From the IMG/VR virus record IMGVR_UViG_2563366819_000008: a stretch of 41,089 bases of DNA. The stretch is one strand, 5' to 3'. Positions 6,526 through 35,046 of this stretch are shown here, in pieces; within the stretch, counting starts at the first letter, position 1; each line of letters opens with the position of its first letter. The DNA comes from a virus (Duplodnaviria; Heunggongvirae; Uroviricota; Caudoviricetes). The translations under genes and the position numbers were made by a program. The notes under the pieces are model-generated. The model saw only the letters and a program-made list of their open reading frames with translations, did no database searches and had not been told where the DNA came from.

Positions 6526-6628
6526 GTTAAATCTCCAGATAGTCGCAGCACCCGTTGCGCCGCATATCTGGTTATTCTATTACCTGAAAAACCACATATG
6601 GATAAAAAGACTATAAATACCAATAGAT

Positions 6629-6645
6629 ATTACCTTTCGGGTAAT
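6629..6645. promoter_or_regulatory. Operator-like palindrome ATTACC-TTTCG-GGTAAT
   Basis: Perfect 6-bp inverted repeat with 5-bp spacer in the divergent region between tailspike and 6721 gene; same motif recurs 10 or more times. Confidence 0.6.
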
Positions 6646-6682
6646 TTGCAAAACGTGCTGGATAGCAAACAAATTATTTGTT

Positions 6683-6700
6683 ACTGTATAAACATACAGT
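6683..6700. promoter_or_regulatory. LexA (SOS) box TACTGTATAAACATACAGT
   Basis: CTGT-N8-ACAG with AT-rich centre, about 20 bp upstream of RBS ggagaag and ATG at 6721. Confidence 0.7.
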
Positions 6701-6720
6701 TATTGCATGGAGAAGATAAG

Positions 6721-6978
6721 ATGCAGCAGTATCACTATCCACTGGAAGACGGATTTACCGAAAGGATTCACACGCCGGGAGGCGTCAGGTCACTGGTGGA
6801 GGGATCGCACTTGATGAAATTACTCCGGGATCTCGATAAGGATGGATTTAATGTCGATGGCCCACTTGCCGAACTGACTGCACTGATTAACTACGTCACC
6901 AGCTCACAGATGTCTATGCAGGATCTGCAAACACATCTCGACTATTGTGCCGAACAATTACGAAAACAAACCAGATAA
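6721..6978 (+). CDS. Small SOS-controlled protein, paralogue of the C-terminal domain of the downstream antirepressor
   Basis: 85 aa; about 45 percent identical to the C-terminus of the 7296..7952 product (shared LAELT...DLQTH/DIQTH block); LexA box immediately upstream. Confidence 0.5.
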   Translation: MQQYHYPLEDGFTERIHTPGGVRSLVEGSHLMKLLRDLDKDGFNVDGPLAELTALINYVTSSQMSMQDLQTHLDYCAEQLRKQTR

Positions 6979-7008
6979 GGTTTGCAATTACCAAATGGAG
7001 TGCTTATA

Positions 7009-7025
7009 TTTACCTTTGCGGTAAA
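7009..7025. promoter_or_regulatory. Operator-like palindrome TTTACC-TTTGC-GGTAAA
   Basis: Same TTACC-N5-GGTAA motif. Confidence 0.55.
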
Positions 7026-7115
7026 TTTACATCGCACTCCTCTTGTGCCATAGTAATCGGGCACTGGCAAAATCCAGTGCCGGGATTGGTCTCCCGGATT
7101 ACTAAGTGGCGCATA

Positions 7116-7137
7116 CCACGCCAGACGTGGTTTTTTT
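7116..7137 (+). terminator. Intrinsic terminator (CCACG/CGTGG hairpin plus T7)
   Basis: ccacgccagacgtggttttttt; lies in the 270-bp leader between operator 7009 and ant start 7296. Confidence 0.5.
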
Positions 7138-7295
7138 ATGCGTATAGCACAGTCATGCCAGAATTATGGTGGGCTGAATGGGGGTCCGAAAGGACGCCGG
7201 TACCACTTAGGCCGGTAAGACCAACTCCGTTCAGTTCACCACCATCTGATTGGTCTCAGCGGTGGTGATGTAATTCGCTAAGTGGAGACGCCATC

Positions 7296-7952
7296 ATGAA
7301 CGCTCAACTCATCCCCGTATTCAACGGCACTATATCTAACGAAACAGCCCTACTTTGTAATGCCCGCGATCTGCACGCTTTTTTAGGTGTTAAAAAGGTG
7401 TTTGCAGCATGGATTACAAATCGCATATCAGAATACGAATTCATTGAAAATCAAGACTATATTTTGCTTTCCAATTTGGGAAAGCAAACATCTGGTAGAG
7501 GCGGCCACAACCGCAAAGAGTACCACCTCACCCTTGATACAGCCAAAGAGCTGGCGATGGTCGAGCGTAACGAAAAAGGTCGTCAGGTACGACGCTACTT
7601 CATTGAATGCGAGAAACGTTTAAGACAACAAGAAACAAAAGTGGAGAAGGTCTTGTCAGGCTTCATGCCCGCCATTATGGAGGCGATCAAGCTGGAAGAC
7701 AAAAAAGAATACAGTGCCCCGCTGAAGCCCGGCTACCGCAGCCTGATTCATTCGCCGTCTGGTGTTCTCGGCCTGACGGAGAACTCACTGCTGATGAATC
7801 TGCTGAACCAGTTACAGGAAGACGGGCACGACGTATCGGGCGCGGCGGCGGAGCTGACCACCATGTTCTGCTACATCGTCGGTGTGAGCAAATGCCTGCG
7901 TGATATCCAGACGCACGCGGAGTACATCAACGACAAGGCAGGGTTCTTCTGA
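7296..7952 (+). CDS. Antirepressor (AntA-like N-terminal domain)
   Basis: N-terminal LIPVFNG...[10 protein letters not shown]...[16 protein letters not shown] resembles AntA/Rha-type antirepressor domains; lies in an immI-like position next to tailspike. Confidence 0.6.
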
Positions 7953-8023
7953 CGGGCGGTGGCACAGGGATGTGCCTTTAAATAATTCTGTACAGATTGC
8001 AGACTGTGGGTGAATAGCGTACT

Positions 8024-8040
8024 ATTACCTTAAAGGTAAA
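8024..8040. promoter_or_regulatory. Operator-like palindrome ATTACC-TTAAA-GGTAAA abutting an RBS
   Basis: Motif followed immediately by ggaggcgcgat ATG (8052). Confidence 0.55.
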
Positions 8041-8051
8041 GGAGGCGCGAT

Positions 8052-8219
8052 ATGACAGCGTTGAAAAATCGTACTCAGCACAATGAACAAGCCAAGCAAT
8101 GCTGGGATGTCATTGGAAAAGTTATGCTTGGCCGCGCAAGCAAAGAGCGCGACAAGGATATGGTTTACCAGACAGGAACATCTTTCAGCGACTTCAAGGC
8201 GGCATTTCGCTCCAAATAG
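8052..8219 (+). CDS. Hypothetical small protein (55 aa)
   Basis: ATG with strong RBS aaaggagg; below the ORF-track size cutoff, translated by hand. Confidence 0.35.
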   Translation: MTALKNRTQHNEQAKQCWDVIGKVMLGRASKERDKDMVYQTGTSFSDFKAAFRSK

Positions 8220-8239
8220 AAGCACATCAGGAGTTTTCC

Positions 8240-8680
8240 TTGAAGTTTAACATTAGAATATCTAATAGTTTTCTACATGGGGAAAGCAACACCCCTTTCG
8301 CTGTAGACGGACCTTTCCTTACTGATGATGAAATAAAAATCATACAAAGTTTTTTAGAGGATGTTGCCAATGGAAGGGCGCTTGTTGGAAAAAACAAGCC
8401 CTCGTGGGTTGATGATAACCATGATAAAATTCCCGGCTCAGACAATTATGAGCAAGAGAATTATTGGCATTATCATTGTGGGCCAACATGGTATCCAAAC
8501 ACATTTAAGAATTATACCATTAACTTAAATTTCAACCCTGGCGGAAGGCATTCTAATGAATGCATTCATTATGCAAAAAATGATAATGAAATTGTCATTG
8601 TTGGATTTTCAAGAGAACACATACCTTTCCTTTCATCAGATGGAAACAACAATCCGCTTTTTAATGATGAAGAAGAATAG
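8240..8680 (+). CDS. Hypothetical protein, AT-rich, probable TTG start, no internal Met
   Basis: In-frame TTG at 8240 with RBS caggag 6 nt upstream; upstream part of the 8099 ORF overlaps the 55-aa gene and looks non-coding; terminator follows. Confidence 0.4.
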   Translation: MKFNIRISNSFLHGESNTPFAVDGPFLTDDEIKIIQSFLEDVANGRALVGKNKPSWVDDNHDKIPGSDNYEQENYWHYHCGPTWYPNTFKNYTINLNFNPGGRHSNECIHYAKNDNEIVIVGFSREHIPFLSSDGNNNPLFNDEEE

Positions 8681-8700
8681 CCCGCGCTGCGGGCTTTTTT
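8680..8700 (+). terminator. Intrinsic terminator (GCCCGC/GCGGGC hairpin plus T6)
   Basis: agcccgcgctgcgggctttttt right after the 8680 stop. Confidence 0.65.
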
Positions 8701-8772
8701 GTGGACGAAACAAAAGTCAGTGCTACACTCATTGACGCCACATTGAGGTGGCTTATAGATGGAAATTTCACA

Positions 8773-8934
8773 ATGAAAAAAGCATTTGCTGCACTGTTCG
8801 TTTTGTTGTCTCTGGTAGCTTCAACTCAGGCCTTTGCCGGTCGTTGTCAGCACGACAGCGATACTGCCGCTGACGGCTCCCGCTGCGGTGGGCGTTCTGC
8901 GGATTCCCGCCCGGGTGGCGGTGGCATTCGTTAA
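8773..8934 (+). CDS. Small secreted peptide (53 aa, about 31-aa mature part with 2 Cys)
   Basis: Start at internal MKKAFAALFVLLSLVASTQAFA signal peptide; Gly/Arg-rich C-terminus. Confidence 0.35.
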   Translation: MKKAFAALFVLLSLVASTQAFAGRCQHDSDTAADGSRCGGRSADSRPGGGGIR

Positions 8935-8940
8935 AAACAA

Positions 8941-8956
8941 GGCCGCGAAAGCGGCC
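8941..8956 (-). terminator. GNRA-type hairpin GGCCGC-GAAA-GCGGCC, with U-run on the minus strand
   Basis: On the minus strand it follows the lipoprotein stop and the 12-bp palindrome and is followed by TTGTTTTT. Confidence 0.5.
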
Positions 8957-8957
8957 T

Positions 8958-8969
8958 GTGACATGTCAC
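8958..8969. repeat. 12-bp perfect palindrome GTGACATGTCAC (copy 1 of 3)
   Basis: Contains the TGA stop of the 8966..9346 lipoprotein gene; adjacent to terminator hairpin. Confidence 0.8.
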
Positions 8970-9346
8970 GCAACGCAATTATTACCGCGCCATGTAACAT
9001 TTTTAATAATCTTATCAGCACCAAACTCAACGTAAACAGAGCAACTGAAATGGAGTGTATAACCGCCATCAGTTGTTGCGTATGTGTTTGAATATATAGT
9101 ATTACCAATTAGATTAGACGTAGTATTATACGTTGTGGTTTGTGGTACGTTATAACTACCAGAGCTTGAGTAAACATACACTCTGTTTCCATCTGGAGAT
9201 GTAAGCTCTCCCTGAGGATACCCCCACTGCTGAACCATTGCGTCTATACTCTGCCCGCGCCACGTAAGCATATTTCTTTCAAACTGTGCAGCTGACTGGC
9301 ATCCAACGAGAAGCATAAATCCAAAAATCAAAAATACTTTTCTCAT
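8966..9346 (-). CDS. Lipoprotein of unknown function (cargo gene; superinfection-exclusion candidate)
   Basis: Start at MRKVFLIFGFMLLVGC with lipobox; RBS agggg; Thr/Ser/Asn/Tyr-rich mature domain. Confidence 0.55.
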   Translation of the reverse strand: MRKVFLIFGFMLLVGCQSAAQFERNMLTWRGQSIDAMVQQWGYPQGELTSPDGNRVYVYSSSGSYNVPQTTTYNTTSNLIGNTIYSNTYATTDGGYTLHFSCSVYVEFGADKIIKNVTWRGNNCVA

Positions 9347-9431
9347 AATTACCCCTATCATGGAAAAACAGCACCAATCCACAAATTAACTAGTTATTTT
9401 ATTATTCTTCCGAACAATACAATTCCGAATA

Positions 9432-9557
9432 CTACAAAGCCGAACCATGCCGCTGCACGCAACAGAGATTCCAATTGAAACCCATTTTTATCAAAATGTA
9501 TGAATAGCATAAAAACGCTGCACATATTAGTACAATAAAAGTTATTTGAACCATCAT
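9432..9557 (-). CDS. Possible 41-aa hydrophobic membrane peptide
   Basis: ATGATG preceded by RBS ggaga; hand translation MMVQITFIVLICAAFLCYSYILIK...; competes with the 62-aa track ORF 9394..9582 in another frame. Confidence 0.3.
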   Translation of the reverse strand: MMVQITFIVLICAAFLCYSYILIKMGFNWNLCCVQRHGSAL

Positions 9558-9565
9558 ATCTCCTT

Positions 9566-12040
9566 TTATTGCGGAGTGACATCCTGTGGTCGCCACCAGT
9601 ATGTCTGGTTAAACTCTTTCTTCGAACGTTGCTCCATTTTACGCAAATAGCCTGGTGAAAAATACTCCTGCATCTGGTTAAAGATCATGTGATCGAGAGC
9701 CGCCTTCAAGTACCAGAGATTCGCACCAGGCATCAAACCTTTCCCCAGCTTCACCAGATCACCACCAGTCTGCTCACTCTTCCCTTCCACAGCATTTAAC
9801 GGTATGCCCTGAGCAATCTTCACTACGTCATCAACCAGACCAGCTACCGGGCCAAGCATCGACGCCAGCGCGCCGCTTCCGTACCTAGTGTGATCTGACA
9901 ATAAAAAGTCACCGTAAAGGCCAAGACCACCACCTTTCAGTAGAGCACCAAGCCAGAATTTTGCGGCATCTTCTCCTGTCATCTCTCGAGGATTACGACC
10001 AGACGCAAGGTCGTTAAGTTGCTGCGACAAAGCGCCAAGAATGGTCGTACTGGCAATAAACGTCGCAATATATGCCGCACGCCCACCAGCAGACGGCATA
10101 CCCATAGCGCGTGACCAGTGACGCATAACAACCGAGATAGGGAACGATTTAAACAGGAAAACACTTCTCGTTAATTCACCTTTCCATGTTCCACGCTGAA
10201 TACCAGAACCGGTTATCAGTTGCTCACGTGCTCCCGGTGTAATAACAGCCATATCAACTTCTTCAGTTACGGCACCGAGCAGTTTACGCATTGCCTCAAA
10301 TTTCACGCGTTCAGGCTCACCAAGATGTTTAACTGCTGAATCAGGGATACGCATAATGCTTTCCGGTGTCAGCATCGTATTATTACCGTTCCCCCAGTCC
10401 TCCTGTTTCGCCAGCTTCCATACGCTCCAGTCTGTGTCAGTAATCCCTTTGCTTTTCAGGATACGAAAATCAGAGTCATCGAGGCTACGAAGGTCTGGTG
10501 TCCGTGACACTACTTCTCCCAGGCTTCCCATCATGGTTACGCCATAGGCGCGCTTGTGCGCATCTGACCATGCTGTAAGCCCACTGGCACGCATTACCGC
10601 CGTTGCCGCCCAACGAGACACTGACGGCCCCATATTATCCATCGCCCAGCGGTTAACGCTGCCAAGTAGAGATTCCATCGCCAGACCAGCGCGGCGCGCC
10701 CGCGCAAGTTCTGTACGGTTCGTTGGGTCCATAGCTTCAAGCTGGTTGCGGAATAACTGGTTCATTGGAAGGTTGGTAACCTTCGCAGACAGATACATGG
10801 TTCCAAGATCAGAGAACGATGACAGCAACGCGGATCCGAGTCTGCTGGCAACCAGCCAGTTGCGGATATTGTCAGACCATCGCGCGATGTGCGGATTCGC
10901 TACAGGCTGTGTCTTTCCGGAAATAAAGTTGTACAGATTCTCTGTGTTGTTCGCCAGCCGCTCGACTTTACCGGTTTTACTCGGGTTAGCTGTTGCCGTT
11001 TCTGCCTTCACCTGATCAAGAAGAGAGCGGAAAACATGATCGGGGTTTGGGCCATATGTTTCCACCAGTGCAATATCTTTACTGATACCTTCCAGGTGAC
11101 AGACCATGATTTCCCATAGAGAGCGATCGCCATAAAGTTGCTGATATTGCAGATAGGAATCTGCATCTTTGAAATGTATCTGTCGTGATGCATTACCACG
11201 GTTAGCACGTGCGCCGGAAATTCGCATTCCGGTATCAGTAAGCTTATTCAGCCCACCAGTAGCGATCGTGTTATAAGCCTCTCCAAGAAATGAAGACAAC
11301 TCGGCATCGTTCATCAGTTGTCCATCGGCTCGGATATAATATTTGCGATCCAGCTTACCTATAACATCGCTAACCCACTTATCCTTTGATACTGCCCCAA
11401 CCTTTTCCATAGAATGATGTTGAGGGATCCCCCAGTTTTCGAGATAGCCAATGTCCCCACCAGCATCATTAAACCGGCGGCGCAGCAGCTCTGTAACTTC
11501 TCTCCACGCCTTAGCACCGTTTCTTGCTTTAGCATTGCCAGTATTTTGCCCCCGCATTTCATATACCAGGTCACGTACGCCCGCTTCATCTTCAAACAGA
11601 CCAAAAAAGCGAGGATCAACTGCTTCGAATGCCTCCTGCAATTGACTCAATGCATAATCACGGGTGGCTTTTGTTCTGGATTCAACAGAGAGGAAATTAG
11701 ATTTACCGTCTGCATTAAAAGCTATAGTACGGTTAAGAGCGCCAAGTTTCCCATCAGCCCCTTGATAGCTATTGATAAATTTATCCAATCTCTGACGCGC
11801 GGCTATAGTGAGAGCCACACGACGTTTATTTAATGCCGCTTCTCGCTGTAATTCTTCAGATGCCAATTGTGCTGCTCGATATAGCCGCTCTGATTCGGAA
11901 AGTTGTCGCCACGACATAGTGTCATCACGAGCAATGGAGCGCATATTTCGATAAATGCGGTCTTCAATGTTCTGTATTTCTCGCGCCGTTAACATGCGCT
12001 GCGCCGCCTGCTGAACCGCTTGTATACATTCCTGTCTCAT
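9566..12040 (-). CDS. Internal virion (core/ejection) protein, 824 aa
   Basis: One of four consecutive structural ORFs between tail tubular genes and the accessory island, as in podoviruses; no motif recognised. Confidence 0.5.
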   Translation of the reverse strand: MRQECIQAVQQAAQRMLTAREIQNIEDRIYRNMRSIARDDTMSWRQLSESERLYRAAQLASEELQREAALNKRRVALTIAARQRLDKFINSYQGADGKLGALNRTIAFNADGKSNFLSVESRTKATRDYALSQLQEAFEAVDPRFFGLFEDEAGVRDLVYEMRGQNTGNAKARNGAKAWREVTELLRRRFNDAGGDIGYLENWGIPQHHSMEKVGAVSKDKWVSDVIGKLDRKYYIRADGQLMNDAELSSFLGEAYNTIATGGLNKLTDTGMRISGARANRGNASRQIHFKDADSYLQYQQLYGDRSLWEIMVCHLEGISKDIALVETYGPNPDHVFRSLLDQVKAETATANPSKTGKVERLANNTENLYNFISGKTQPVANPHIARWSDNIRNWLVASRLGSALLSSFSDLGTMYLSAKVTNLPMNQLFRNQLEAMDPTNRTELARARRAGLAMESLLGSVNRWAMDNMGPSVSRWAATAVMRASGLTAWSDAHKRAYGVTMMGSLGEVVSRTPDLRSLDDSDFRILKSKGITDTDWSVWKLAKQEDWGNGNNTMLTPESIMRIPDSAVKHLGEPERVKFEAMRKLLGAVTEEVDMAVITPGAREQLITGSGIQRGTWKGELTRSVFLFKSFPISVVMRHWSRAMGMPSAGGRAAYIATFIASTTILGALSQQLNDLASGRNPREMTGEDAAKFWLGALLKGGGLGLYGDFLLSDHTRYGSGALASMLGPVAGLVDDVVKIAQGIPLNAVEGKSEQTGGDLVKLGKGLMPGANLWYLKAALDHMIFNQMQEYFSPGYLRKMEQRSKKEFNQTYWWRPQDVTPQ

Positions 12041-12045
12041 TTAAT

Positions 12046-19845: not shown

Positions 19846-20453
19846 CAGGACAACCTCGCAATGGTAAACTCGTCAACCGGTGGCTGTGGTTCCTGTGATT
19901 CATTCTGGCTATGCGAGCCAGCACTAAGAATCACGCGATTGTACATATTGAGAGCAAATGTACCGAGATCCGCATTCCCAGTCAGCGCCATGTTAATGGC
20001 TGCCGCAAGACGCCAGGCCAGCGCCTCCATAAAAATGGCATCAAACATGTTTACATCTGAAACGCGAGAGACATACTTGAGCCATGCCTGCGGCTGGTCT
20101 GTGTAGATCAATTTTCCTGTTCCGTTGGTGTCTGCACCAACTTCGTACTGAACGCGCATTGCTGCTGTTGGATTGCGTACACCAGGAAGCATAATTTCAG
20201 TAATGCGCAGACAATCTGACGGGTACTGGTACGCATATTCCCAGTCAGGCGGTGGATTGCTCGTATCTGCAAGCGCCACGCGTTTGGTAGCAAAGTTCCA
20301 GTCAAAATCAGAAAGCACAGTATCACGGCAGGCCTCAAAGTGCAGCGAACATTCCCCCGCTTCCTTGCTGGCTTCCGTCAGGCTGTTAATGCTGCGGCTG
20401 TTGCCAATATTGGACAGCGCACGATTACAGATCTCTACTACAGAGGCCATCAC
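19845..20453 (-). CDS. Tail tubular protein A-like (adaptor), 202 aa
   Basis: Size about 200 aa and N-terminal pattern resembling T7 gp11-type proteins. Confidence 0.5.
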   Translation of the reverse strand: MMASVVEICNRALSNIGNSRSINSLTEASKEAGECSLHFEACRDTVLSDFDWNFATKRVALADTSNPPPDWEYAYQYPSDCLRITEIMLPGVRNPTAAMRVQYEVGADTNGTGKLIYTDQPQAWLKYVSRVSDVNMFDAIFMEALAWRLAAAINMALTGNADLGTFALNMYNRVILSAGSHSQNESQEPQPPVDEFTIARLS

Positions 20454-25330: not shown

Positions 25331-25344
25331 TTCAATGACTCCGG

Positions 25345-25551: not shown

Positions 25552-25640
25552 ATCAATGACTCCGTACGCAATTAAATTATTACCAATTTAACCACATATG
25601 ATTTATTTATCGTAGACAGTTGACATTTAACGCGCGAATT

Positions 25641-25657
25641 ATTACCTTTCAGGTAAC
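25641..25657. promoter_or_regulatory. Operator-like palindrome ATTACC-TTTCA-GGTAAC upstream of the portal operon
   Basis: Same TTACC-N5-GGTAA motif; TTGACA-like hexamer about 20 bp to the left. Confidence 0.55.
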
Positions 25658-25978: not shown

Positions 25979-26055
25979 GTGGCATTAGCTCAGTCGGACA
26001 GAGCAACCGCCTTCTAAGCGGTTGGTCGCAGGTTCGAATCCTGCATGCCACGCCA
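25979..26055 (+). tRNA. tRNA-Arg, anticodon UCU (reads AGA)
   Basis: Acceptor stem GTGGCAT/ATGCCAC, D arm GCTC/GAGC, anticodon stem ACCGC/GCGGT with loop CTTCTAA, T arm GCAGG-TTCGAAT-CCTGC, 3' GCCA; similar but not identical to host argU. Confidence 0.85.
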
Positions 26056-26098
26056 GAATCACGCCTAAGGACCGTGATGCCAGAAGTTCCAGGTGCTT

Positions 26099-26140
26099 GG
26101 CGGTGATGGTTTCCCTTGAAGGACTATCACCGCCCTTTTT
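26099..26140 (+). terminator. Hairpin (GGCGGTGAT/ATCACCGCC) plus T-run after the tRNA
   Basis: Seen in sequence; long loop, so strength uncertain. Confidence 0.45.
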
Positions 26141-26218
26141 ACAGCAGGACGCCATTGCGATGACTTCATGCTGTAAACCAGTACAGCCACGGAAGGCATA
26201 ACTCATTGCTTCCAGTTC

Positions 26219-26242
26219 GCCCGGTTCGCCGGGCATTTTTTT
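26219..26242 (+). terminator. Intrinsic terminator-like hairpin GCCCGG-TTCG-CCGGGC plus A-T7, immediately upstream of the RBS of the 26254 ORF
   Basis: Seen in sequence; followed directly by aaggtgag and ATG. Confidence 0.55.
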
Positions 26243-26253
26243 AAGGTGAGATC

Positions 26254-26676: not shown

Positions 26677-26680
26677 CGCC

Positions 26681-26692
26681 GTGACATGTCAC
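26681..26692. repeat. 12-bp perfect palindrome GTGACATGTCAC (copy 2 of 3)
   Basis: Between the 26676 stop and the terminator hairpin. Confidence 0.8.
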
Positions 26693-26697
26693 AATCA

Positions 26698-26721
26698 GCC
26701 CGCCGATTCGCGGGCTTTTTT
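26698..26721 (+). terminator. Intrinsic terminator GCCCGC-cgattc-GCGGGC plus T6
   Basis: Overlaps the 3' end of terL on the other strand. Confidence 0.65.
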
Positions 26722-28195: not shown

Positions 28196-28788
28196 TGATT
28201 ACCATCCTGACGTTCTTTGAGTCGCTTCCTGGCTGCTGCTATGCGATCAGCAATTGTCACATTCACATTAACATCCAGACGTTCTTTGAACGCGTTGACA
28301 TCAACATGCTTACCAATCAGCTCAAGGTTCTTCACCTTGTCAGGCCATTTAATTTTTTTGAGGATTGTCTCTATCGAATCCTCGTTCATGTTCATGATGG
28401 TCGATGACAGATCAAAGCCACTAAGCGTAGTGCGCCAGATTTTCGGCCACTCACGGATTGGTTTAAGGCTCCCATCGTCGTTGAGGATGTCGATCACATC
28501 CATCTGGTCGATCTCCACCAGGCGCATAAGAACGTAATCGGCACTGACGCGCATTCGTTTGTTGCGCTCCTCCATCAGCTCGGCAATCCGTTTTTGAATG
28601 CGTTCATCGCGCATCATGACACTGGCTTTAACTGCCGCTGTATTTGGGGAGAATCCTGCGTTAATCGCTGCCTGAGTCTGGTTTTCAGGCGTTTTGATGT
28701 ATGACTGGCAATAAGCCTCCTGCATTGCTGTTAGTGGCTTAAATTGCGTTGATTTGCGTTTATAGGTTTTAGGTTCAGCAGGCATCAT
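28192..28788 (-). CDS. Terminase small subunit (start moved to MMPAEPK)
   Basis: Position upstream of TerL; track ORF begins at a TTG inside tandem repeats that translate to low-complexity TITTTVTITT, so the ATG at 28788 is preferred. Confidence 0.6.
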   Translation of the reverse strand: MMPAEPKTYKRKSTQFKPLTAMQEAYCQSYIKTPENQTQAAINAGFSPNTAAVKASVMMRDERIQKRIAELMEERNKRMRVSADYVLMRLVEIDQMDVIDILNDDGSLKPIREWPKIWRTTLSGFDLSSTIMNMNEDSIETILKKIKWPDKVKNLELIGKHVDVNAFKERLDVNVNVTIADRIAAARKRLKERQDGNQ

Positions 28789-28795
28789 AACCACC

Positions 28796-28827
28796 GTGGT
28801 AATAGTTACCGTTGTGGTAATAGTACC
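28796..28827. repeat. Tandem everted half-site repeats GTGGTAATAGTTACC / GTGGTAATAGTACC
   Basis: GGTAA-tag-TTACC uses the same half-sites as the operator motif but in everted order, just upstream of terS. Confidence 0.6.
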
Positions 28828-28830
28828 ATG

Positions 28831-28857
28831 CAAAATAAAGCCGCCATAGTTGGCGGC
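28831..28857 (-). terminator. Minus-strand intrinsic terminator GCCGCC-loop-GGCGGC plus UUUAUUUUG in the late leader (tR'-like)
   Basis: Located between the zinc-finger gene stop and terS start. Confidence 0.55.
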
Positions 28858-28898
28858 AGTATTCAAAACCCGTCAAATTCATCATGCATAATCTACTC

Positions 28899-28910
28899 GT
28901 GACATGTCAC
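28899..28910. repeat. 12-bp perfect palindrome GTGACATGTCAC (copy 3 of 3)
   Basis: Contains the TGA stop of the 28907..29248 gene; about 50 bp upstream of the tR'-like hairpin. Confidence 0.8.
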
Positions 28911-29248
28911 ACTATTAATTTCGTTTCATGCCAGCCTTTAGTCACCCAGCATTGCGAGTCACCATTACACGGGCATGAATTAACTGGAACTCTCTCGCCG
29001 CACTTACCGCAACGTTTTCTGCTGATCGATTTTATACGCCCGCGCACGCGTGCATCATCCTGGCGGATCAGTAACGCTATATACTCACCAAATTCGTAAG
29101 GCGCACGCCCGGGGCGACGCGTGGCACAGTTACGCTCCAGCATTTCAATTTCCTGAGCATCAAGCACAATTTCCAGCTTACGCACACCAGATGCAGCTTG
29201 TCTGGCTCTCTGAGCGGCTTTGCGCTCTGCTGCTGATTTAGCCATCAA
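28907..29248 (-). CDS. Zinc-finger protein (Cys cluster CGKCG...CPCNG...C), late-regulator candidate
   Basis: Last gene before the late leader; basic N-terminus; function inferred from position only. Confidence 0.4.
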   Translation of the reverse strand: MMAKSAAERKAAQRARQAASGVRKLEIVLDAQEIEMLERNCATRRPGRAPYEFGEYIALLIRQDDARVRGRIKSISRKRCGKCGERVPVNSCPCNGDSQCWVTKGWHETKLIV

Positions 29249-29519
29249 TATTCACCTTTATCGCGTACACCTTTACCGGTTTATCGCCGAAGTGGGGATG
29301 TGTGATTGTCTTTATTTCATATCCATCATACGGAACATCAATTCTACGGCTGGAATCGTCGCGCTTCGGATATCCCTTTGTGATAATCAGGCGGTCATAC
29401 TCCCGGAACATAATTCGCTTATTCCAGTAGTCATTACACAGGCGATACTCTTCCGTTTTCTCTCCGCGAATCATGGCATCGAAGTATTCACCTTTAACGG
29501 CAAGTTGCAGGTTAGCCAC
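29238..29519 (-). CDS. Small ASCH-like domain protein
   Basis: Approximate family resemblance only. Confidence 0.35.
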   Translation of the reverse strand: MANLQLAVKGEYFDAMIRGEKTEEYRLCNDYWNKRIMFREYDRLIITKGYPKRDDSSRRIDVPYDGYEIKTITHPHFGDKPVKVYAIKVNIDG

Positions 29520-30315
29520 GGTTAACCTCCTGCGGCGGTTCTGGTAGATGCATCCAGTGGGTTACACCGTCAATTGGTTCATCGTCGTCGTACTCCAATG
29601 CGGCTATATAGAACCCGTCACGACGAGAATAAGAAATCCCGGACATTACAATGCCATCCGAAACAACTATAATGTCACCCGTTTCTTCCGGCATTCGCTC
29701 ACTACAGCTTATCCAACCATCCGGAGTTACCGGATAGTTGCGCATTGCGACCTTTAATGCCTCATAGAAGCAACCTTTCAGATTGTTGAACTGACGCCCA
29801 TTTAGCGGGACGTGTTCAGTCAGCATGTTGTGTAATTTCCATGCCGCGTCGTTTACTTCGCTGGATGACAGGGGAGGCAACTTGTAAGTTTGGCTTACAG
29901 GTTCGGCACCATGAAGCATGGCAGCACGGCAGGCGTTCCAGCCTCTCACCTCTGCAATAGCGGCAACAGCATCAACCGTGTACATGCTAAGAGGATTAGG
30001 CATTGGTTTTTCTTCCGGTACTACTGGCACTGGAGGGGCGGTATAAAACTTCGTCCCCAGCGGCAACAACTTCATCGCTTTTTCTCCCTTAATGATGCGA
30101 TAAGTTGATTTCCCGCCAAGGTCTACCGTTCCATCCATAACAAGGCCGAGTCGCTTCTCTGAAACCTCACCAATAGGCTCTGCTTCCAGCGATGCCAGAG
30201 CAATTCGTGCCAGTTCTTCCGCTTCTTCTGCTGGCAGTACAACGTTGCTACCAGGTCCGTATGTTTCGCGCCACTGCTTGAGTGTCAGCAGTCGTTCTTT
30301 GGTCATAGTGGTCAT
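29512..30315 (-). CDS. DUF551-type lambdoid early protein
   Basis: C-terminal GW...DGVTHWMHLPEPP block; start at MTTMTKERLL next to upstream stop. Confidence 0.5.
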   Translation of the reverse strand: MTTMTKERLLTLKQWRETYGPGSNVVLPAEEAEELARIALASLEAEPIGEVSEKRLGLVMDGTVDLGGKSTYRIIKGEKAMKLLPLGTKFYTAPPVPVVPEEKPMPNPLSMYTVDAVAAIAEVRGWNACRAAMLHGAEPVSQTYKLPPLSSSEVNDAAWKLHNMLTEHVPLNGRQFNNLKGCFYEALKVAMRNYPVTPDGWISCSERMPEETGDIIVVSDGIVMSGISYSRRDGFYIAALEYDDDEPIDGVTHWMHLPEPPQEVNRG

Positions 30316-30316
30316 A

Positions 30317-30979
30317 TCACTCTCCTTTGATGCGAAAGCCAGCTGCGCTTGCTGATTCTTCATATGCGCGTTTAGCAGCGTTAAGGATTGCTGCCAGTGG
30401 CGTATAGCCGCCATCCATTCGGATTGTGTTGTGGATGCCAGCCATTGTGTTGCGCAATTTTCTGTGGCTAGCAGACAGTTCTGCTATGCGCTTCTCTGCG
30501 GCTTCCAGCTTCTCGCGCATATCGTCAACGTACTCGACCAGAGAACCGCCAGCAGGAATTTCGCACTCCTCGACCAGTTGGAAGTAGATATCAGCTGCGG
30601 CCCGTGTGTTGCTATGCCTAGCGTCGCCCATCTCACCTTCACGAAGAGCATCGCGTTCGGCGGTAAGATTGGCTATTTTGCTGTCTTTGCCTTCCAGCTC
30701 AACGCGCAGCTTCCCTACCGTTAGCGCAATTTCCTCGTTCTCCTGATCGCGGCGTTTGATGTATTGCTGGTTTCTTTCCCGTTCATCCAGTAGTGCCAGC
30801 ACGGTTTCTGGTCCGGTCAGAAATTTGAAGGCGTTGAGCGCATCAATATCCACACCGTAATCTTTAAGTTCCTGTTCACTTAACAAATCATCATCAGCTG
30901 GCAACATTAACAGGCGTTCCATTGCTGGAATTGCACGTTCCGCCGCCTCACGCAGTGCCTGGTAATTAATTTCGCTCAC
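30317..30979 (-). CDS. Ead/Ea22-like protein (probable GTG start overlapping upstream stop)
   Basis: N-terminal SEINYQALREAAERA pattern; RBS aaggagg before the GTG. Confidence 0.5.
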   Translation of the reverse strand: MSEINYQALREAAERAIPAMERLLMLPADDDLLSEQELKDYGVDIDALNAFKFLTGPETVLALLDERERNQQYIKRRDQENEEIALTVGKLRVELEGKDSKIANLTAERDALREGEMGDARHSNTRAAADIYFQLVEECEIPAGGSLVEYVDDMREKLEAAEKRIAELSASHRKLRNTMAGIHNTIRMDGGYTPLAAILNAAKRAYEESASAAGFRIKGE

Positions 30980-31443
30980 TGGTTGCCTCCTTTGCGAAGC
31001 TGCTCCGCACAATGCAGCAGGGCGTCCGTCGCTTCTTTCACCGTAACGATGTCGCCATCGTCCAGCCCGGCAACCGTCGCGTCCTTAACGAACACCGAGC
31101 AAAGGTCATTAAACGCCTGCGCCCGTACTTCAGCCAAGAAAGCGTCGGTGGCTGTGGTTTCGATATCGTTAATTTCAGGAAGAATCTCTTCCCATGTAGC
31201 GATATCGCCATTCAAATGCCATCCGGCAATTCCACTGGAGTTATCCGCAACACTCCGAACGGCTTCAATAGTTTCATGCATTGCCGCATTCTCCGCTGCC
31301 AGCTCATTAGCACGCACCAACTGAACTTCCAGTTGCGCTGCCAAACAGCGAACAAGCACGGATGGTGCGCCTGTCATGTCGTCAGCTAACGCATGCCCTG
31401 ATGCCACTAAATCTTTGATCATACCTTCAGCCATACTTTCCAT
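30976..31443 (-). CDS. Ea22-like acidic protein
   Basis: Composition and position in non-essential early region. Confidence 0.4.
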   Translation of the reverse strand: MESMAEGMIKDLVASGHALADDMTGAPSVLVRCLAAQLEVQLVRANELAAENAAMHETIEAVRSVADNSSGIAGWHLNGDIATWEEILPEINDIETTATDAFLAEVRAQAFNDLCSVFVKDATVAGLDDGDIVTVKEATDALLHCAEQLRKGGNQ

Positions 31444-31504
31444 CTTTACCCTCGCTTATCCACATAACTTATTGATTGCATTGATAACTAAAAAGATCGT
31501 CGAC

Positions 31505-31849
31505 TCAGAACTCTTCGATGTTCCAGCCGCCACCTGCTTTCTTTGGTTTAACCGTTACCCCGATTATTCGGAACGGATACTGATCTGCGGCGACTTTTGT
31601 TTTCACTCTGGCGTCGTCGGTCCAGAAACCTTTCACTTCGTGCAGTTCCATCTCGCCGGTGGCGAGCATCACAGCAAAATCGGGCGTATAGAACGTGTTG
31701 TCAGCTAACCGCAGCTTGATACCCTCGAATCGATACCAGGCGATTTCCCCTGCACGTTTACGCTGCTCAAGGTGCTGGCAATACGCAGATTCTGTTTTGT
31801 TCATCTGGCCTGTTTTGAGTCGACCAAGAGCCTGTATCTGTTTTCTCAT
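31505..31849 (-). CDS. Small PD-(D/E)XK-type nuclease (VRR-NUC-like)
   Basis: TPDFAV ... ELHEVKG arrangement fits a PD...ExK active site. Confidence 0.45.
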   Translation of the reverse strand: MRKQIQALGRLKTGQMNKTESAYCQHLEQRKRAGEIAWYRFEGIKLRLADNTFYTPDFAVMLATGEMELHEVKGFWTDDARVKTKVAADQYPFRIIGVTVKPKKAGGGWNIEEF

Positions 31850-31851
31850 GA

Positions 31852-31868
31852 TTTACCTCTGAGGTAAT
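31852..31868. promoter_or_regulatory. Operator-like palindrome TTTACC-TCTGA-GGTAAT overlapping the RBS of the 31849 gene
   Basis: Right half-site GGTAA lies in the GAGGT Shine-Dalgarno. Confidence 0.55.
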
Positions 31869-31913
31869 TAAAAACCACATAAGACACGAAATCAATAGAT
31901 TTTAGAATATTTT

Positions 31914-31930
31914 ATTACCCATCAGGTAAT
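31914..31930. promoter_or_regulatory. Operator-like palindrome ATTACC-CATCA-GGTAAT
   Basis: Perfect 17-bp site between P-like gene end and nuclease gene. Confidence 0.6.
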
Positions 31931-31966
31931 CATTGAGACGTAAAAAAATGCGCTATCGCGCTGGTA

Positions 31967-32749
31967 TTACTTGATAAATCCTGCCGCCTTTCCCCGCCTG
32001 TATTCCTCCATCAGCCACTGCGCCGGTGTTATTCCCCCAAGGGTGGCGGCGTTAGGCATGCACCCGAAACTTCGCCCTGGTGGATGGTAAACGTCTCTCC
32101 CTGTGCCCGGAGGTGTACTCATGGGCTCTGGCTTTGCCTGTATGCTGATCACCGGATCGGGTATCTGCTGTCCGGAAGCCACCTTTTTCGCCCAATCATC
32201 GAGCAGCCTGCGCGCGTGTTTCTCAACCTCAATCTCGCTAAGCTGGCGCTGATACATTGCACGGCGGGTATCACATACGACCCAGTACATAACCGGATGT
32301 CGCCACGGGAATCTTTCGGGACCACCAGGATATAAACTTTTTTCCTTGCTGTACCGGTGAAACTCCGCCATCACATCGTCAATGGTGACGCCAAGAACCA
32401 TCTTGCTGTCTTTGCACCACTTGATGAATTGCCCTGGCGACGGCCAGAACGGAGATTCACTGGCGCGGGCGTGGCGCATACCAGCGTTAACCTGTTCCAT
32501 TGTTGTGATCCCATTCTCCAGAAACGCAAGCATCCATTGTTTTCGAAATTCGTTTAGCTTTCCTTGCTCGCTGATAGCAGCGATGCTGCCTGGAAATGCA
32601 GCCTGTAACTGGACAAACATTTCGTTGAAAATTCTTGCAACCTGCTCCTTCTTTGCCCTTTCATCGTCAGCAGAAGCAACCGCCGTCGAGTGGTCATGCC
32701 CACCACGAAAGCGATCGTACTCATTAAGAAGTTCTGGAGTTGATTTCAT
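31967..32749 (-). CDS. Replication protein P-like helicase loader
   Basis: Blocks FLENGITTMEQVNAGMR and PSPGQF closely match lambda P; start at MKSTPELL with RBS gaggtg. Confidence 0.8.
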   Translation of the reverse strand: MKSTPELLNEYDRFRGGHDHSTAVASADDERAKKEQVARIFNEMFVQLQAAFPGSIAAISEQGKLNEFRKQWMLAFLENGITTMEQVNAGMRHARASESPFWPSPGQFIKWCKDSKMVLGVTIDDVMAEFHRYSKEKSLYPGGPERFPWRHPVMYWVVCDTRRAMYQRQLSEIEVEKHARRLLDDWAKKVASGQQIPDPVISIQAKPEPMSTPPGTGRDVYHPPGRSFGCMPNAATLGGITPAQWLMEEYRRGKAAGFIK

Positions 32750-33557
32750 CCCACACCTCATCTATCCAGTCAGTGTTATGCCAGTCAAGGCTCTTTCTGA
32801 CTTCACCTGATTTCTGTCTACAGAACTGGATGCGCCTTGCCAGCTTCTGCTCCCACTGTGCCTGATGGTATGCCTTACCCTCAGCCATCCAGTAAATTCT
32901 GAACTCTGCAAGTTCCTGTGCCGTTGGCAGACTGTCCAGGTAGATCCCCTGCAATGAGCTTTTCCGAAGAAAGTCATCTGATGGCTGCCATTGTTCATGC
33001 ATGACAAATTTGCCTAATTGCCCTGGCCCACCAGGAGGAACAAAGTTATTCATCACGGCGTTGTTTGCGCCGGGGTCATGATGCACAGAATCCCCGTTTT
33101 TTGTCCTGCTCTCCCTCTCTTGGTTAAATGACTGGTTATATGACTGGTTCTGGATCCCGTTTTTGGGATCATTCAACATCCCGTTTTTGGGATCATTCAA
33201 CATCCCGTTTTTGGGTATATTCCCGTTTTCGGTAACATTACCGTTTTCGGGTTCATTGCCCCCCTCCCGGCTGCCTTTAATGTTCCCGTTTTTGGTTATA
33301 TTAAGAGAGAAAACCCGCACTCTTTTTGTCGCTCCCTTTCTCTCTCCGGTATCTGAAATAAGCCCCATTTTCATGAGCGATATAAGCCCGGCCTGCACGG
33401 TTTTTTTATTCAGGCAAGTGTCTTTAACGAGGCGTTCTATGCTGGGGTAGCAGAGGTTATATTCATCGGCTCTGTCAGCCATCGAGAGCAGTATGAGCTT
33501 TAATGATGAGCTACCTGGATCTGTCTCCCAGGCCCAATCTGTTGCATGTCTGCTCAT
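32724..33557 (-). CDS. Replication initiator, O-like, with internal origin iterons
   Basis: N-terminal winged-helix-type block; central repeats in DNA and protein (NGMLNDPK x2). Confidence 0.65.
   Translation of the reverse strand: MSRHATDWAWETDPGSSSLKLILLSMADRADEYNLCYPSIERLVKDTCLNKKTVQAGLISLMKMGLISDTGERKGATKRVRVFSLNITKNGNIKGSREGGNEPENGNVTENGNIPKNGMLNDPKNGMLNDPKNGIQNQSYNQSFNQERESRTKNGDSVHHDPGANNAVMNNFVPPGGPGQLGKFVMHEQWQPSDDFLRKSSLQGIYLDSLPTAQELAEFRIYWMAEGKAYHQAQWEQKLARRIQFCRQKSGEVRKSLDWHNTDWIDEVWDEINSRTS
33153..33300. repeat. Origin iterons: 24-bp unit GATCCCGTTTTTGGGATCATTCAA x2 plus about four degenerate CCCGTTTT(T/C)GG copies
   Basis: Direct repeats inside the O-like gene. Confidence 0.7.
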
Positions 33558-33572
33558 GATTAATCTCCGCTA

Positions 33573-33773
33573 TCAGCTTGAGTGTTGTGGGGAGGAATTA
33601 ATCATGATCTGCTTAATCTCTGCCCTGATGCGACGGTTTGATTCCATGGTGCACTCAACACAGTGTCCGTTGTAAACCCAGCGTTCACTGTCATGTCCGT
33701 GCTTACATGGTTTTCCGGTGTAGTAGCGTTTAAGTCCGCGCTTTGCGGCATCAATACGTGTAATGATTTCCAT
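33573..33773 (-). CDS. Small zinc-binding protein in the cII position
   Basis: Motif CKHGH...CVEC; start codon uncertain (alternative at 33836). Confidence 0.35.
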   Translation of the reverse strand: MEIITRIDAAKRGLKRYYTGKPCKHGHDSERWVYNGHCVECTMESNRRIRAEIKQIMINSSPQHSS

Positions 33774-33852
33774 GGTAAGCCCTGTTATTAGTATTGGGAT
33801 TACGGTCATTTTGTGCTGACACAAAAAAAAGATCAACCAGATTTGGTTTTTT

Positions 33853-33869
33853 ATTACCTTTGAGGTACG
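33853..33869. promoter_or_regulatory. Operator-like site ATTACC-TTTGA-GGTACG (one mismatch)
   Basis: Between Cro-like gene and the next gene. Confidence 0.45.
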
Positions 33870-33923
33870 AATAGATATGAAAAGACCGCCGGGTGGCGGT
33901 CTACAGAGGGTTGTAGCTGGATA

Positions 33924-34154
33924 TCATGAGTAGAAGAAGTATGCCAGTTCTGCTTTTGAGCGCAGCCATTGTCTTGTTTTACAGGCTTTAAAAAGCCCAT
34001 TCATCAATACCTTACCTGGCATTTTGCGCTTACCTGTTAAGTGAGTCTGGATATAGTGACTCGTCGTTCCGGCTTCCTGTGCGAAGGCTTCACGCTCATC
34101 CGGAGTAAGTGCAAGCCAGTGCTTTTTGAAATCGAAATGTCCGTTATCGCTCAT
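33924..34154 (-). CDS. Cro-like HTH regulator
   Basis: Small HTH protein divergent from the repressor gene, first gene of the rightward early operon. Confidence 0.5.
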   Translation of the reverse strand: MSDNGHFDFKKHWLALTPDEREAFAQEAGTTSHYIQTHLTGKRKMPGKVLMNGLFKACKTRQWLRSKAELAYFFYS

Positions 34155-34190
34155 AGCTATTGCCTGATATTTATTTCAGATAATAAATAT

Positions 34191-34254
34191 TCACCCATAA
34201 GGTAACAAAAATCAAGGATAGTTACCTATGAGGTGCATTTACCTGTTGGGTAAT
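34191..34254. promoter_or_regulatory. Divergent immunity promoter region with three operator sites (two imperfect, one perfect TTTACC-TGTTG-GGTAAT at 34238-34254)
   Basis: TCACC-cataa-GGTAA, TTACC-tatga-GGTGC and a perfect site between the Cro-like and repressor genes. Confidence 0.6.
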
Positions 34255-34308
34255 ATTGCTTTAAATTGAATCATCTACTGATTCATATATGAGGCGATTT
34301 TCCAGAAA

Positions 34309-34893
34309 ATGAAAAGTATCCAGGACGTCCGCAGGCAAAATCTCAACGACTTGATCGACCGTGAATTCAATGGTGTTCAGACGCGGATGGCAGAAAAACT
34401 TGGAACTCAGGCAAATCTGGTAAACCGCTGGGCTCTTGGCAAGAAGGTTATCGGCGACCAGGTTGCACGAAAAATTGAAGCTGCCGCCAATAAACCCCGT
34501 AACTGGCTTGATATCGATCGCTCGCTTTCTCAGGAAGGTTTTCAGCCTGTCGGCCCAAGCGACATTGGCCAGCTGGCGGCTCACAACCTGGAACGCTGGA
34601 TGAGCGAAAGCCGCGACCTTTCAACACAGGGAAAACTTCACCGCGCATCCGGCGTAGCCCAGGTGACAATCAGCCGCCTGTTAAACAATGAGGTCAGCGT
34701 TTCCATTTCCACCCTGGAGAATGTTGCATCCGCATTCGGGCGTCACGGCTATGAATTACTGATTCACCCGCACGACCCTGCGACCATCAACTATGATCGC
34801 TCGCGCTACGCATTGTTACCCGAAACCGAGAAAGCAAAGATCGAAAGTTACATTGAATTTGTCATCAACCAGAACGAAAAAAACAAACAATAA
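34309..34893 (+). CDS. Repressor-position protein with two tandem HTH domains and no LexA-like autopeptidase domain
   Basis: Two HTH_XRE-like segments (QTRMAEKLGTQANLVNRW and HRASGVAQVTISRLL); divergent from cro; own terminator. Confidence 0.55.
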   Translation: MKSIQDVRRQNLNDLIDREFNGVQTRMAEKLGTQANLVNRWALGKKVIGDQVARKIEAAANKPRNWLDIDRSLSQEGFQPVGPSDIGQLAAHNLERWMSESRDLSTQGKLHRASGVAQVTISRLLNNEVSVSISTLENVASAFGRHGYELLIHPHDPATINYDRSRYALLPETEKAKIESYIEFVINQNEKNKQ

Positions 34894-34913
34894 AACCATA
34901 TTTTTCAGTAAGT

Positions 34914-34940
34914 AAGCCGCCTTATGGCGGCTTTTTCATT
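34914..34940 (+). terminator. Intrinsic terminator AAGCCGCC-TTAT-GGCGGCTT plus T-run
   Basis: Directly after the repressor stop. Confidence 0.65.
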
Positions 34941-34949
34941 GCCTATTCG

Positions 34950-34966
34950 ATTACCTAACGGGTAAT
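34950..34966. promoter_or_regulatory. Operator ATTACC-TAACG-GGTAAT (early-left promoter)
   Basis: Perfect 17-bp palindrome. Confidence 0.6.
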
Positions 34967-35011
34967 TTTTTTAACTCATATCTATTGACATCAAACCATA
35001 TACGCATAATT

Positions 35012-35028
35012 ATTACCTCAACGGTAAC
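35012..35028. promoter_or_regulatory. Operator ATTACC-TCAAC-GGTAAC (early-left promoter)
   Basis: Second site 62 bp from the first; TTGACA hexamer at about 34985 between them. Confidence 0.6.
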
Positions 35029-35046
35029 AGACCGAGGTAACAAGTT

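Follow-up and report, generated by a model that had tools for sequence, protein, structure and literature searches.

The sites bound by the repressor (gp38) of Salmonella phage ε15 presumably go back to Kropinski et al. (2007), and the Rep-Ant-LexA switch of Salmonella phage SPC32H is, we take it, the one represented by PDB entries 5D50 and 5D4Z, Kim and Ryu (2013) and Kim et al. (2016). In the GenBank record of ε15 (AY150271.2), seven dispersed copies of a motif are annotated as protein_bind 'repressor'. In SPC32H Rep, DNA binding is assigned to the N-terminal domain, dimerisation to the middle one, and tetramerisation and Ant binding to the C-terminal one, and the protein reportedly binds palindromic DNA as a tetramer (PMC9986798; PMC9638917). 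In phage P1, one repressor, C1, holds many separate operons through 22 dispersed operators (PMC8546580). Stoperators, for which the comparison set was the cluster A mycobacteriophages (L5 gp71, TipsytheTRex repressor), are 13-mers that lack symmetry and are oriented with transcription; a monomeric repressor carrying two DNA-binding domains occupies them, and they block elongation (PMC9283540).

The window, the whole 41,089-nucleotide stretch analysed here, is an E. coli prophage of the phiV10/ε15-like (Uetakevirus) type. It carries the same palindrome as ε15, ATTACC-N5-GGTAAT, and the two share sites at terS, the portal genes, tailspike/ant, early-left and RuvC/DUF1064. The prophage differs in having additional ant-island sites (7010 and 8025), two early-left sites against three in ε15, and no operator in the lysis operon, where relatives have one. 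The int-proximal site of relatives would lie past the window end. Three switch sites were also matched by the scan in ε15, although its record leaves them unannotated. Motif and repressor assignment are thus already known from the ε15 record, and what is confirmed here is an ordinary feature, not a discovery.

Motif counts and site positions

The exact core TTACC-N5-GGTAA occurs 10 times in the window, against 0.01 expected from dinucleotide shuffles, so the repeated intergenic palindrome of the preliminary description is real. These 15-bp cores start at 6630, 7010, 8025, 25642, 28806, 31853, 31915, 34239, 34951 and 35013. Three copies have one mismatch (28788, 33854 and 34191), and a two-mismatch copy at 34222 adjoins 34239 and is kept in relatives. 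All 14 sites (10 exact, 4 degenerate) are intergenic, occur between 6.6 and 35 kb and lie at the 5' ends of about nine units. The whole-window scan with shuffled controls that had been proposed recovered 14 sites scoring at least 12 bits, against 0.39 in shuffles; since the position weight matrix was built from the same sites, only the shuffle background is informative. The palindrome is two-fold symmetric with identical half-sites and hence has no orientation.

The catalogue of copies in the preliminary description needed partial revision. Of its perfect or near-perfect copies, 33853 has one mismatch (GGTAC). The half-sites at 6580–6584, 25580–25584 and 35035–35039 are indeed isolated, whereas those at 34191 and 34222 are degenerate full operators. 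Its 'everted half-sites' at 28796–28827 are really two tandem full sites, 28788–28802 and 28806–28820, immediately upstream of terS.

The operator ATTACCTTTCGGGTAAT (6629–6645, exact) lies in the divergent control region of the tailspike and small ant genes, and its syntenic ε15 site (19895–19911) is annotated 'repressor'. An isolated half-site, GGTAAT (6579–6584, minus strand), sits upstream of the tailspike gene, 50 bp from this operator, and is kept in all six genomes compared. Within the ant island, TTTACCTTTGCGGTAAA (7009–7025, exact) is located 3' of the ant stop codon and adjoins the −35 element of the isrK promoter-like site, with syntenic counterparts at phiV10 20497, Tyrion 21393 and BUCT711 17377. 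The third, ATTACCTTAAAGGTAAA (8024–8040, exact), overlaps the Shine-Dalgarno sequence of a 55-aa ORF (8052–8219) and no counterpart was detected at that position in the other five of the six genomes.

Upstream of the gp3-like/portal structural operon (minus strand) is an exact operator at 25641–25657 (ε15 2931–2947, annotated 'repressor'), with a second isolated GGTAAT half-site (25579–25584, minus strand) 62 bp downstream, centre to centre, present in 6/6 genomes. At terS, a terminator-like hairpin (28857–28840) is followed by an exact operator (28805–28821; ε15 12–27, annotated 'repressor') and then by a one-mismatch copy (28787–28803) that takes in the Shine-Dalgarno sequence of the terminase small-subunit gene together with its ATG (28788). 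The promoter-proximal operator of the DUF1064 gene (31505–31849, minus strand) is exact (31852–31868; ε15 counterpart 35969) and overlaps its Shine-Dalgarno sequence; 62 bp away is an exact upstream operator (31914–31930; ε15 35906–35922, annotated 'repressor'), and this spacing is conserved in relatives. The two Shine-Dalgarno overlaps originally noted, at 8024–8040 and 31852–31868, are therefore joined by one at 28788.

The remaining sites surround the immunity region. A one-mismatch operator (33853–33869), which separates the cro-like gene's terminator from the replication genes, is syntenic with phiV10 33112, Tyrion 35365 and BUCT711 6032. Three operators form the switch. The first (34190–34206, one mismatch) falls between the −35 and −10 elements of the leftward promoter-like site of the cro-like gene. 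The second (34221–34237, two mismatches) directly adjoins the third, and its position is kept in phiV10, ε15 and SPC32H (17-bp spacing). The third (34238–34254, exact) is nearest the repressor gene and is identical in 79/80 related loci. Directly past the rep terminator lies the exact upstream early-left operator (34950–34966; ε15 32616–32632, annotated 'repressor'), and a further exact operator (35012–35028; ε15 32554–32570, annotated 'repressor') overlaps −10/+1 of the early-left promoter-like site (TTGACA-17-AATTAT, 34985–35013). The isolated half-site at 35035–35039 is shared by the window, phiV10 and Tyrion alone, being absent from ε15, SPC32H and BUCT711.

Clear sigma-70 promoters were seen at just three places, the early-left, cro-like and isrK sites, where operators overlap or bracket them. 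None was evident at portal, tailspike, terS or 33854, and we infer repression of initiation at these four places. Each 17-mer could form a hairpin of 4–7 bp, which would allow the palindromes to be RNA processing or termination signals instead of DNA-binding sites. We consider this scarcely credible: the hairpins are of low stability (−1 to −5 kcal/mol) and lack a U-tract, several sites precede a −35 element and so fall outside the transcript, and the degenerate sites lose pairing uncompensated (TCACC/GGTAA, TTACC/GGTAC, TTACC/GGTGC). What is conserved is the sequence rather than the pairing.

Conservation of half-sites and spacings

Six Uetakevirus genomes from four host genera were compared (the window, phiV10, ε15, SPC32H, Tyrion and BUCT711). 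Motif positions are syntenic, with matching spacings, in phiV10, ε15, SPC32H, a Klebsiella phage and an Enterobacter phage. Selection was assessed in 80 related prophages with identical Rep. Variable columns amounted to 3/110 in the half-site core, 31/55 in N5 and 163/858 in the flanks, and π was about 0.005, 0.13 and 0.03, respectively, with 0.02–0.16 at four-fold sites. Judged from these alignments, the half-sites are under strong purifying selection, and the rate of change in the N5 spacer is close to that of synonymous sites.

Spacing between paired sites is also kept: 62 bp in 150/154 pairs, 48 bp in 80/80, and 18 bp, the distance between the two terS operators, in 63/63. The operator code appears frozen genus-wide (that is, across Escherichia, Salmonella, Klebsiella and Enterobacter phages), half-sites and the 62-, 48- and 18-bp geometry being retained even with Rep at 42% identity. 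This bears on the proposal that the repeats serve mainly as module boundaries or recombination sequences facilitating mosaic exchange, without a regulatory role. The variable ant island does start at operator 7010, and homology with ε15 and SPC32H stops at 6973–6978. Most sites, however, lie within conserved collinear regions at fixed distances from promoters and from one another, which makes the proposal very unlikely; a boundary role would in any case be compatible with operator function.

The repressor and competing readings of its sites

The rep gene (34309–34893, plus strand) encodes a 194-aa protein that matches SPC32H Rep (PDB 5D50) over residues 1–190 (E = 4e-42), with about 42% identity to that protein and 42% to the ε15 repressor gp38. 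It shares 100% identity with the repressors of phiV10 and ZX5. Overexpression of the ZX5 repressor reduced the transcripts of holin and endolysin by over 99.9%, and in that work, on an identical repressor, a PL operator was a matter of speculation only (PMC9782041). Operator annotation is absent from the phiV10 records, both GenBank (immunity/replication region) and RefSeq (whole genome), and the RefSeq terS gene model spans two operators.

Pfam matches of Rep are to HTH families only (HTH_3, HTH_26, LacI, YdaS, HTH_31), with HTH_3 at residues 106–147, and the protein has two HTH-like regions; no Peptidase_S24 autocleavage domain was matched in Pfam. The prophage resembles lambda/434-type CI systems in its 17-bp two-fold symmetric operator with free central bases and paired HTH domains, and in a tripartite switch flanked by divergent repressor and cro-like genes. 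It differs in having sites beyond OL/OR and predicted antirepressor induction. A lambda-type CI (S24 domain, OL/OR only) does not fit the lack of a Peptidase_S24 match or the sites across 6.6 to 35 kb.

In a Pseudomonas phage, a cI that has only its N-terminal domain in common with Rep is flanked by four TTACC-N4-GGTAA sites (0.06 expected). Comparison supports a reading in which two identical N-terminal HTH domains would contact two identical half-sites one helical turn apart. The notion in the preliminary description of a two-HTH monomer spanning both half-sites is not supported, because this cI, with the N-terminal domain alone, is still flanked by palindromes.

The same evidence weighs on a stoperator-type mechanism, in which monomeric Rep would use two HTH-like domains per site to block elongating RNA polymerase inside operons. 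Many repressor sites in short intergenic gaps across the genome, together with the two HTH-like regions, recall that system, and sites 8025, 28788/28806 and 33854 lie past terminators, ahead of co-oriented genes, with no clear promoter. We regard it as highly improbable. Stoperators are asymmetric and orientation-dependent (PMC9283540), whereas the sites here are symmetric, free of orientation and located at operon starts, with the readable promoters overlapped or bracketed; the likeness originally drawn to stoperators is not supported. In addition, the homologous SPC32H Rep is reportedly a tetramer that has a single DNA-binding domain in each chain and engages palindromes via these N-terminal domains, its middle HTH-like domain serving dimerisation (PMC9638917; PMC9986798), and the Pseudomonas homologue has palindromes without that middle domain.

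A more serious competitor, unlikely as we judge it, is the 76-aa cro-like regulator (33924–34154, minus strand), which could be the main or an additional ligand, the dispersed copies then serving a lytic regulator. Lambda Cro and CI use common operators. The protein matches phrog_35 'transcriptional repressor' (E = 5.6e-13), and its gene is divergent from rep across the three switch operators. Against this, the ε15 annotation credits the sites to the repressor, and the half-site follows the Rep-type N-terminal domain into the Pseudomonas phage. The cro-like protein might nevertheless share the switch sites.

The evidence supports reading the 14 dispersed palindromes, of the form (A/T)TTACC-N5-GGTAA(A/T), as the operator set of one master repressor, Rep. 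On the single-repressor, genome-wide set, the original proposal is upheld by the ε15 annotation, six-genome synteny, half-site selection and the full-length SPC32H Rep homologue.

Proposed silencing, induction and antirepression

In a lysogen, Rep would shut the 5' ends of units directly and not just by way of a cascade of early genes. The units concerned are early-left, cro-like, replication, DUF1064-to-terS, portal/structural, tailspike and ant island. The reported tetramer has two N-terminal domain pairs, so one Rep tetramer could hold two operators. Candidates for such bridging are the operators 62 bp apart on either side of the early-left and DUF1064 promoter-like regions, a full site together with the conserved half-site in the portal (62 bp) or tailspike (50 bp) control region, and the abutting 17–18-bp pairs at the immunity switch and terS.

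Induction would proceed by antirepression, without repressor cleavage. The small antirepressor Ant (6721–6978, plus strand; 85 aa) is 88% identical to SPC32H Ant, and a LexA box, TACTGTATAAACATACAGT (6682–6700; 0.02 expected by chance), lies upstream of ant. Release of LexA would allow small Ant to be made, and Ant would disassemble the Rep tetramer, as it reportedly does in SPC32H; homologues and the LexA box point to the same step here. The likeness to SPC32H thus extends to a full-length Rep homologue, Ant, the LexA box before ant and the same operator motif set. The differences are a Rep of only about 42% identity and a second antirepressor, of the AntA type, behind isrK and C4 RNAs. Taken as a whole, the model of 14 Rep operators, possible tetramer pairing, direct unit shutdown and antirepression is, in our judgement, very probably correct.

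The system also works like that of P1 C1, with a C4 antisense RNA/ant module under an operator. P1 operators are asymmetric 17-bp sequences (ATTGCTCTAATAAATTT), unlike the symmetric, different motif here. A relationship between P1 C1 and Rep is not indicated by the Rep Pfam matches, all to HTH families, and the shared trait of many dispersed operators is a working likeness, not family membership.

We tentatively raise, as a conjunction that we think doubtful, that the tetramer clamps two in-phase sites, that respecification needs about 14 changes, and that immunity and induction specificity has moved to antirepressors. A change of specificity would require about 14 simultaneous site changes, and for that reason the specificity would have shifted to the antirepressor layer. 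If this is true, clamping, including at the lone portal and tailspike half-sites, would lock late promoters directly, and the antirepressor layer would comprise LexA-controlled Ant and an AntA-Ant fusion that is controlled by isrK/C4 RNA and itself placed behind a Rep operator, recalling the immI logic of P1/P7.

As a discovery the operator set is minor, the repressor family already having crystal structures, and its practical value lies in the annotation of operators. Its invariant half-sites, neutral spacer and fixed 62-bp pairing offer a testable map of how a tetrameric repressor may silence a whole podovirus genome.

The palindrome and its counterparts in Uetakevirus

The window contains ten exact copies of TTACC-N5-GGTAA, where dinucleotide shuffles give an expectation of 0.01. 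Allowing one mismatch added copies at 28788, 33854 and 34191 (sites are named here by the start of this pattern). A further copy with two mismatches, at 34222, directly abuts the site at 34239 and is kept in relatives. Scanning with a position weight matrix at a threshold of 12 bits recovered 14 sites at 12.6–24 bits, against a background in the window of no more than 11.2 bits; at the 14-site threshold, shuffled sequence yielded 0.39 matches. Since the matrix was built from the very sites it scored, the information lies in the shuffle background alone. Each of the 14 sites is intergenic. A weak match at 2726 and others below 12 bits lie within genes and were taken as chance. The enrichment over shuffles confirms that the recurrent palindrome noted in the preliminary description is a real feature. 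The coordinates assigned there were right overall, with three corrections. The copy at 33853 (33854 here), listed as perfect, has one mismatch; the "everted half-sites" at 28796–28827 are two full sites in tandem; and 34191 and 34222, listed as half-sites, are degenerate full operators. A reading of the palindromes as RNA hairpins was rejected.

The Uetakevirus podophages phiV10, PAS61 and phiv142-3 of E. coli match the prophage region at 97–98% identity. Bases 1 to ~1100, next to the prophage's lysis end, carry the host genes yfgI and yfgH, an arrangement that fits the integration at the 3′ end of guaA reported for the sister phage ZX5 (PMC9782041). Since the integrase gene reaches the right-hand edge of the window, the prophage junction on that side and the int-proximal operator of relatives fall outside it.

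In GenBank AY150271.2, which describes the genus's type species, Salmonella phage ε15, seven features are labeled "protein_bind, repressor, lysogeny", and all have the sequence ATTACC-N5-GGTAAT. Single sites lie upstream of the terminase small subunit gene (terS), gp3/portal, the tailspike gene and RuvC, and three lie downstream of the repressor gene. The window contains a matching region for every one of them, with two early-left sites versus three in ε15. For phiV10, no operator is annotated in the whole RefSeq record or in the immunity and replication region (31700–35600) of the GenBank record. In phiV10, ε15, SPC32H, Klebsiella phage BUCT711 and Enterobacter phage Tyrion, the motif recurs at matching control regions, with 13–18 sites per genome versus about 0.5 expected. 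The geometry is also common to the genus: a pair of sites spaced by 18 bp at terS, 62-bp pairs at the early-left and DUF1064/RuvC regions, and three sites at the immunity switch, the outer two separated by 47–48 bp. An operator precedes the lysis operon in phiV10 (24692), ε15 (24704), SPC32H (24782) and Tyrion (26408); the upstream region of this operon in the window (3087–3405) contains neither a Rep operator nor an O-acetyltransferase gene.

Rep and recognition of the half-sites

The master repressor, Rep (34309–34893, + strand, 194 aa), has the same sequence as its phiV10 and ZX5 counterparts (100% identity), and its alignment with SPC32H Rep is full-length (PDB 5D50; E = 4e-42). When the identical ZX5 protein was overexpressed, free phage was abolished and transcript levels of holin and endolysin fell by over 99.9% (PMC9782041). 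Taken with the ε15 annotation and the synteny across the genus, this homology upholds the proposal of a genome-wide operator set for one repressor. The window sites share every sequence-level feature of the Uetakevirus Rep operator set, and the feature is in that sense already known.

SPC32H Rep is described as comprising an N-terminal DNA-binding domain, a middle dimerization domain and a C-terminal domain for tetramerization and Ant binding (PMC9986798). On palindromic DNA it is reported to be a tetramer, with the paired DNA-binding domains proposed to originate in different dimers (PMC9638917). Given this domain description, the Pfam HTH_3 match at residues 106–147 corresponds to the dimerization domain and not to a second DNA reader. 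The suggestion that a two-HTH monomer contacts both half-sites is therefore not supported. The half-sites are identical and related by two-fold symmetry, and hence call for two identical domains. Comparison supports the N-terminal domain of Rep as the probable reader of TTACC. The cI protein of PseuP_224, a Pseudomonas phage, has the N-terminal domain alone in common with Rep (39% identity), and its C-terminal part differs. Its gene is flanked by four copies of TTACC-N4-GGTAA (3922–3974 and 4797–4836; 0.06 expected), which have the same half-site and a spacer shorter by one base.

Two known systems were considered. Stoperators are asymmetric, orientation-dependent sites for a monomeric repressor that has two DNA-binding domains (PMC9283540), whereas the window sites are symmetric; the likeness to stoperator-type control drawn earlier thus does not hold. 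The C1 network of P1 works alike, with 22 dispersed operators in P1. However, the P1 operators are asymmetric and the Pfam matches of Rep are to HTH families only, so kinship to C1 is not indicated. The comparisons favor a Rep operator set in which N-terminal domains, paired symmetrically, read each site.

Constraint was assessed in 80 IMG/VR prophage loci. Because Rep is 100% identical in all of them, they were of no use for covariation between recognition helix and half-site and served for population constraint instead; Rep diversity was drawn from the phage collection. Polymorphism affects 3 of 110 columns in the ten-position half-site core (mean π about 0.005), 31 of 55 in the N5 spacer (0.13) and 163 of 858 in the flanks (about 0.03). 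The excess in the spacer over the flanks (56% versus 19% of columns) raised the possibility of hypermutation or diversifying selection. This was rejected, as four-fold degenerate sites in nearby genes are equally variable (mean π 0.02–0.16, the terS value being void owing to an out-of-frame start coordinate). Judged by these polymorphisms, the half-sites are strongly constrained and the spacer is simply near-neutral. Pair spacing is also fixed among related loci: 150 of 154 pairs keep 62 bp, and the 48-bp and 18-bp spacings hold in 80 of 80 and 63 of 63 cases, respectively.

Operators, promoters and gene starts

As far as comparison supports, nearly all transcription units have an operator at their start. 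At the early-left promoter (TTGACA-17-AATTAT, 34985–35013), one operator covers −10/+1 and another lies upstream of −35. Operator 34191 falls between the hexamers of the minus-strand promoter (TTGTTA-17-TATTAT) of the cro-like gene, which encodes a 76-aa regulator (33924–34154, − strand) divergent from rep. Operator 7010 abuts the −35 of the isrK promoter (TTTACA-17-CATAGT). Sigma-70 scans gave convincing promoters at these three places only, and promoter overlap is claimed nowhere else. The DUF1064 region has the layout and distances of early-left but a poor −10, and scans gave no convincing sigma-70 promoter at portal, tailspike, terS or 33854. A single Rep tetramer could bridge two in-phase sites and so bracket a promoter, and the late operons may be repressed directly. 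Operators at 8025, 31853 and 28788 cover Shine-Dalgarno sequences. This placement would not represent translational control; the overlap probably results from the close packing of the first gene against the operon start.

The portal and tailspike regions each also contain a lone GGTAAT half-site, at 62 and 50 bp respectively from the full operator, and both are kept in all six genomes compared (the window and the five phages). A second conserved element, CATATRTGGTT, is present on the minus strand at tailspike (6590–6597), portal (25590–25597) and DUF1064 (31873–31880), in each case with the Rep operator on its upstream side and a half-site or operator downstream, and also before the lysis operon (3147–3157, − strand). 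It is kept in 6/6 genomes, from four host genera, and is a candidate late-promoter or activator element.

The longest terS ORF, from a TTG at 28866, would enclose both operators. An in-frame ATG at 28788 with the Shine-Dalgarno sequence GGTGG gives a 198-aa product that agrees with ε15 terS, and the start of the phiV10 RefSeq model (41..715, 224 aa) is therefore probably placed too far upstream. A tRNA-Arg gene (anticodon TCT; 25979–26055, + strand) lies between the terminase and portal regions, and its location matches that of a tRNA-Arg in SPC32H.

Proposed induction by antirepression

Induction of SPC32H reportedly occurs by antirepression (work attributed to Kim and Ryu, 2013), and this prophage may be induced in the same way. 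This reading is supported by a perfect LexA box (6682–6700) and by the small antirepressor Ant (6721–6978, + strand, 85 aa), which has 88% identity to its SPC32H counterpart. For Rep, the binding partner of Ant, identity to the SPC32H protein is only about 42%, and the two partners have thus changed at unequal rates.

Behind Rep operator 7010 lies a module (7061–7952) resembling the P1 immI and Gifsy-1 isrK-type modules. It comprises the Hfq-binding sRNA isrK (7061–7137, 67.7 bits), a C4 antisense RNA (7162–7246, 61.2 bits) and, preceded by both RNAs, a gene for an AntA-type antirepressor (7296–7952). The C-terminal part of AntA (residues 135–216) matches the PHROG family of Ant, so AntA looks like a second, RNA-controlled antirepressor of Rep. 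The residual interest of the operator set lies in this second antirepressor module, under isrK and C4 RNAs and behind a Rep operator, in the strict 62-bp spacing of paired sites, and in an operator code that is seemingly frozen across the genus.
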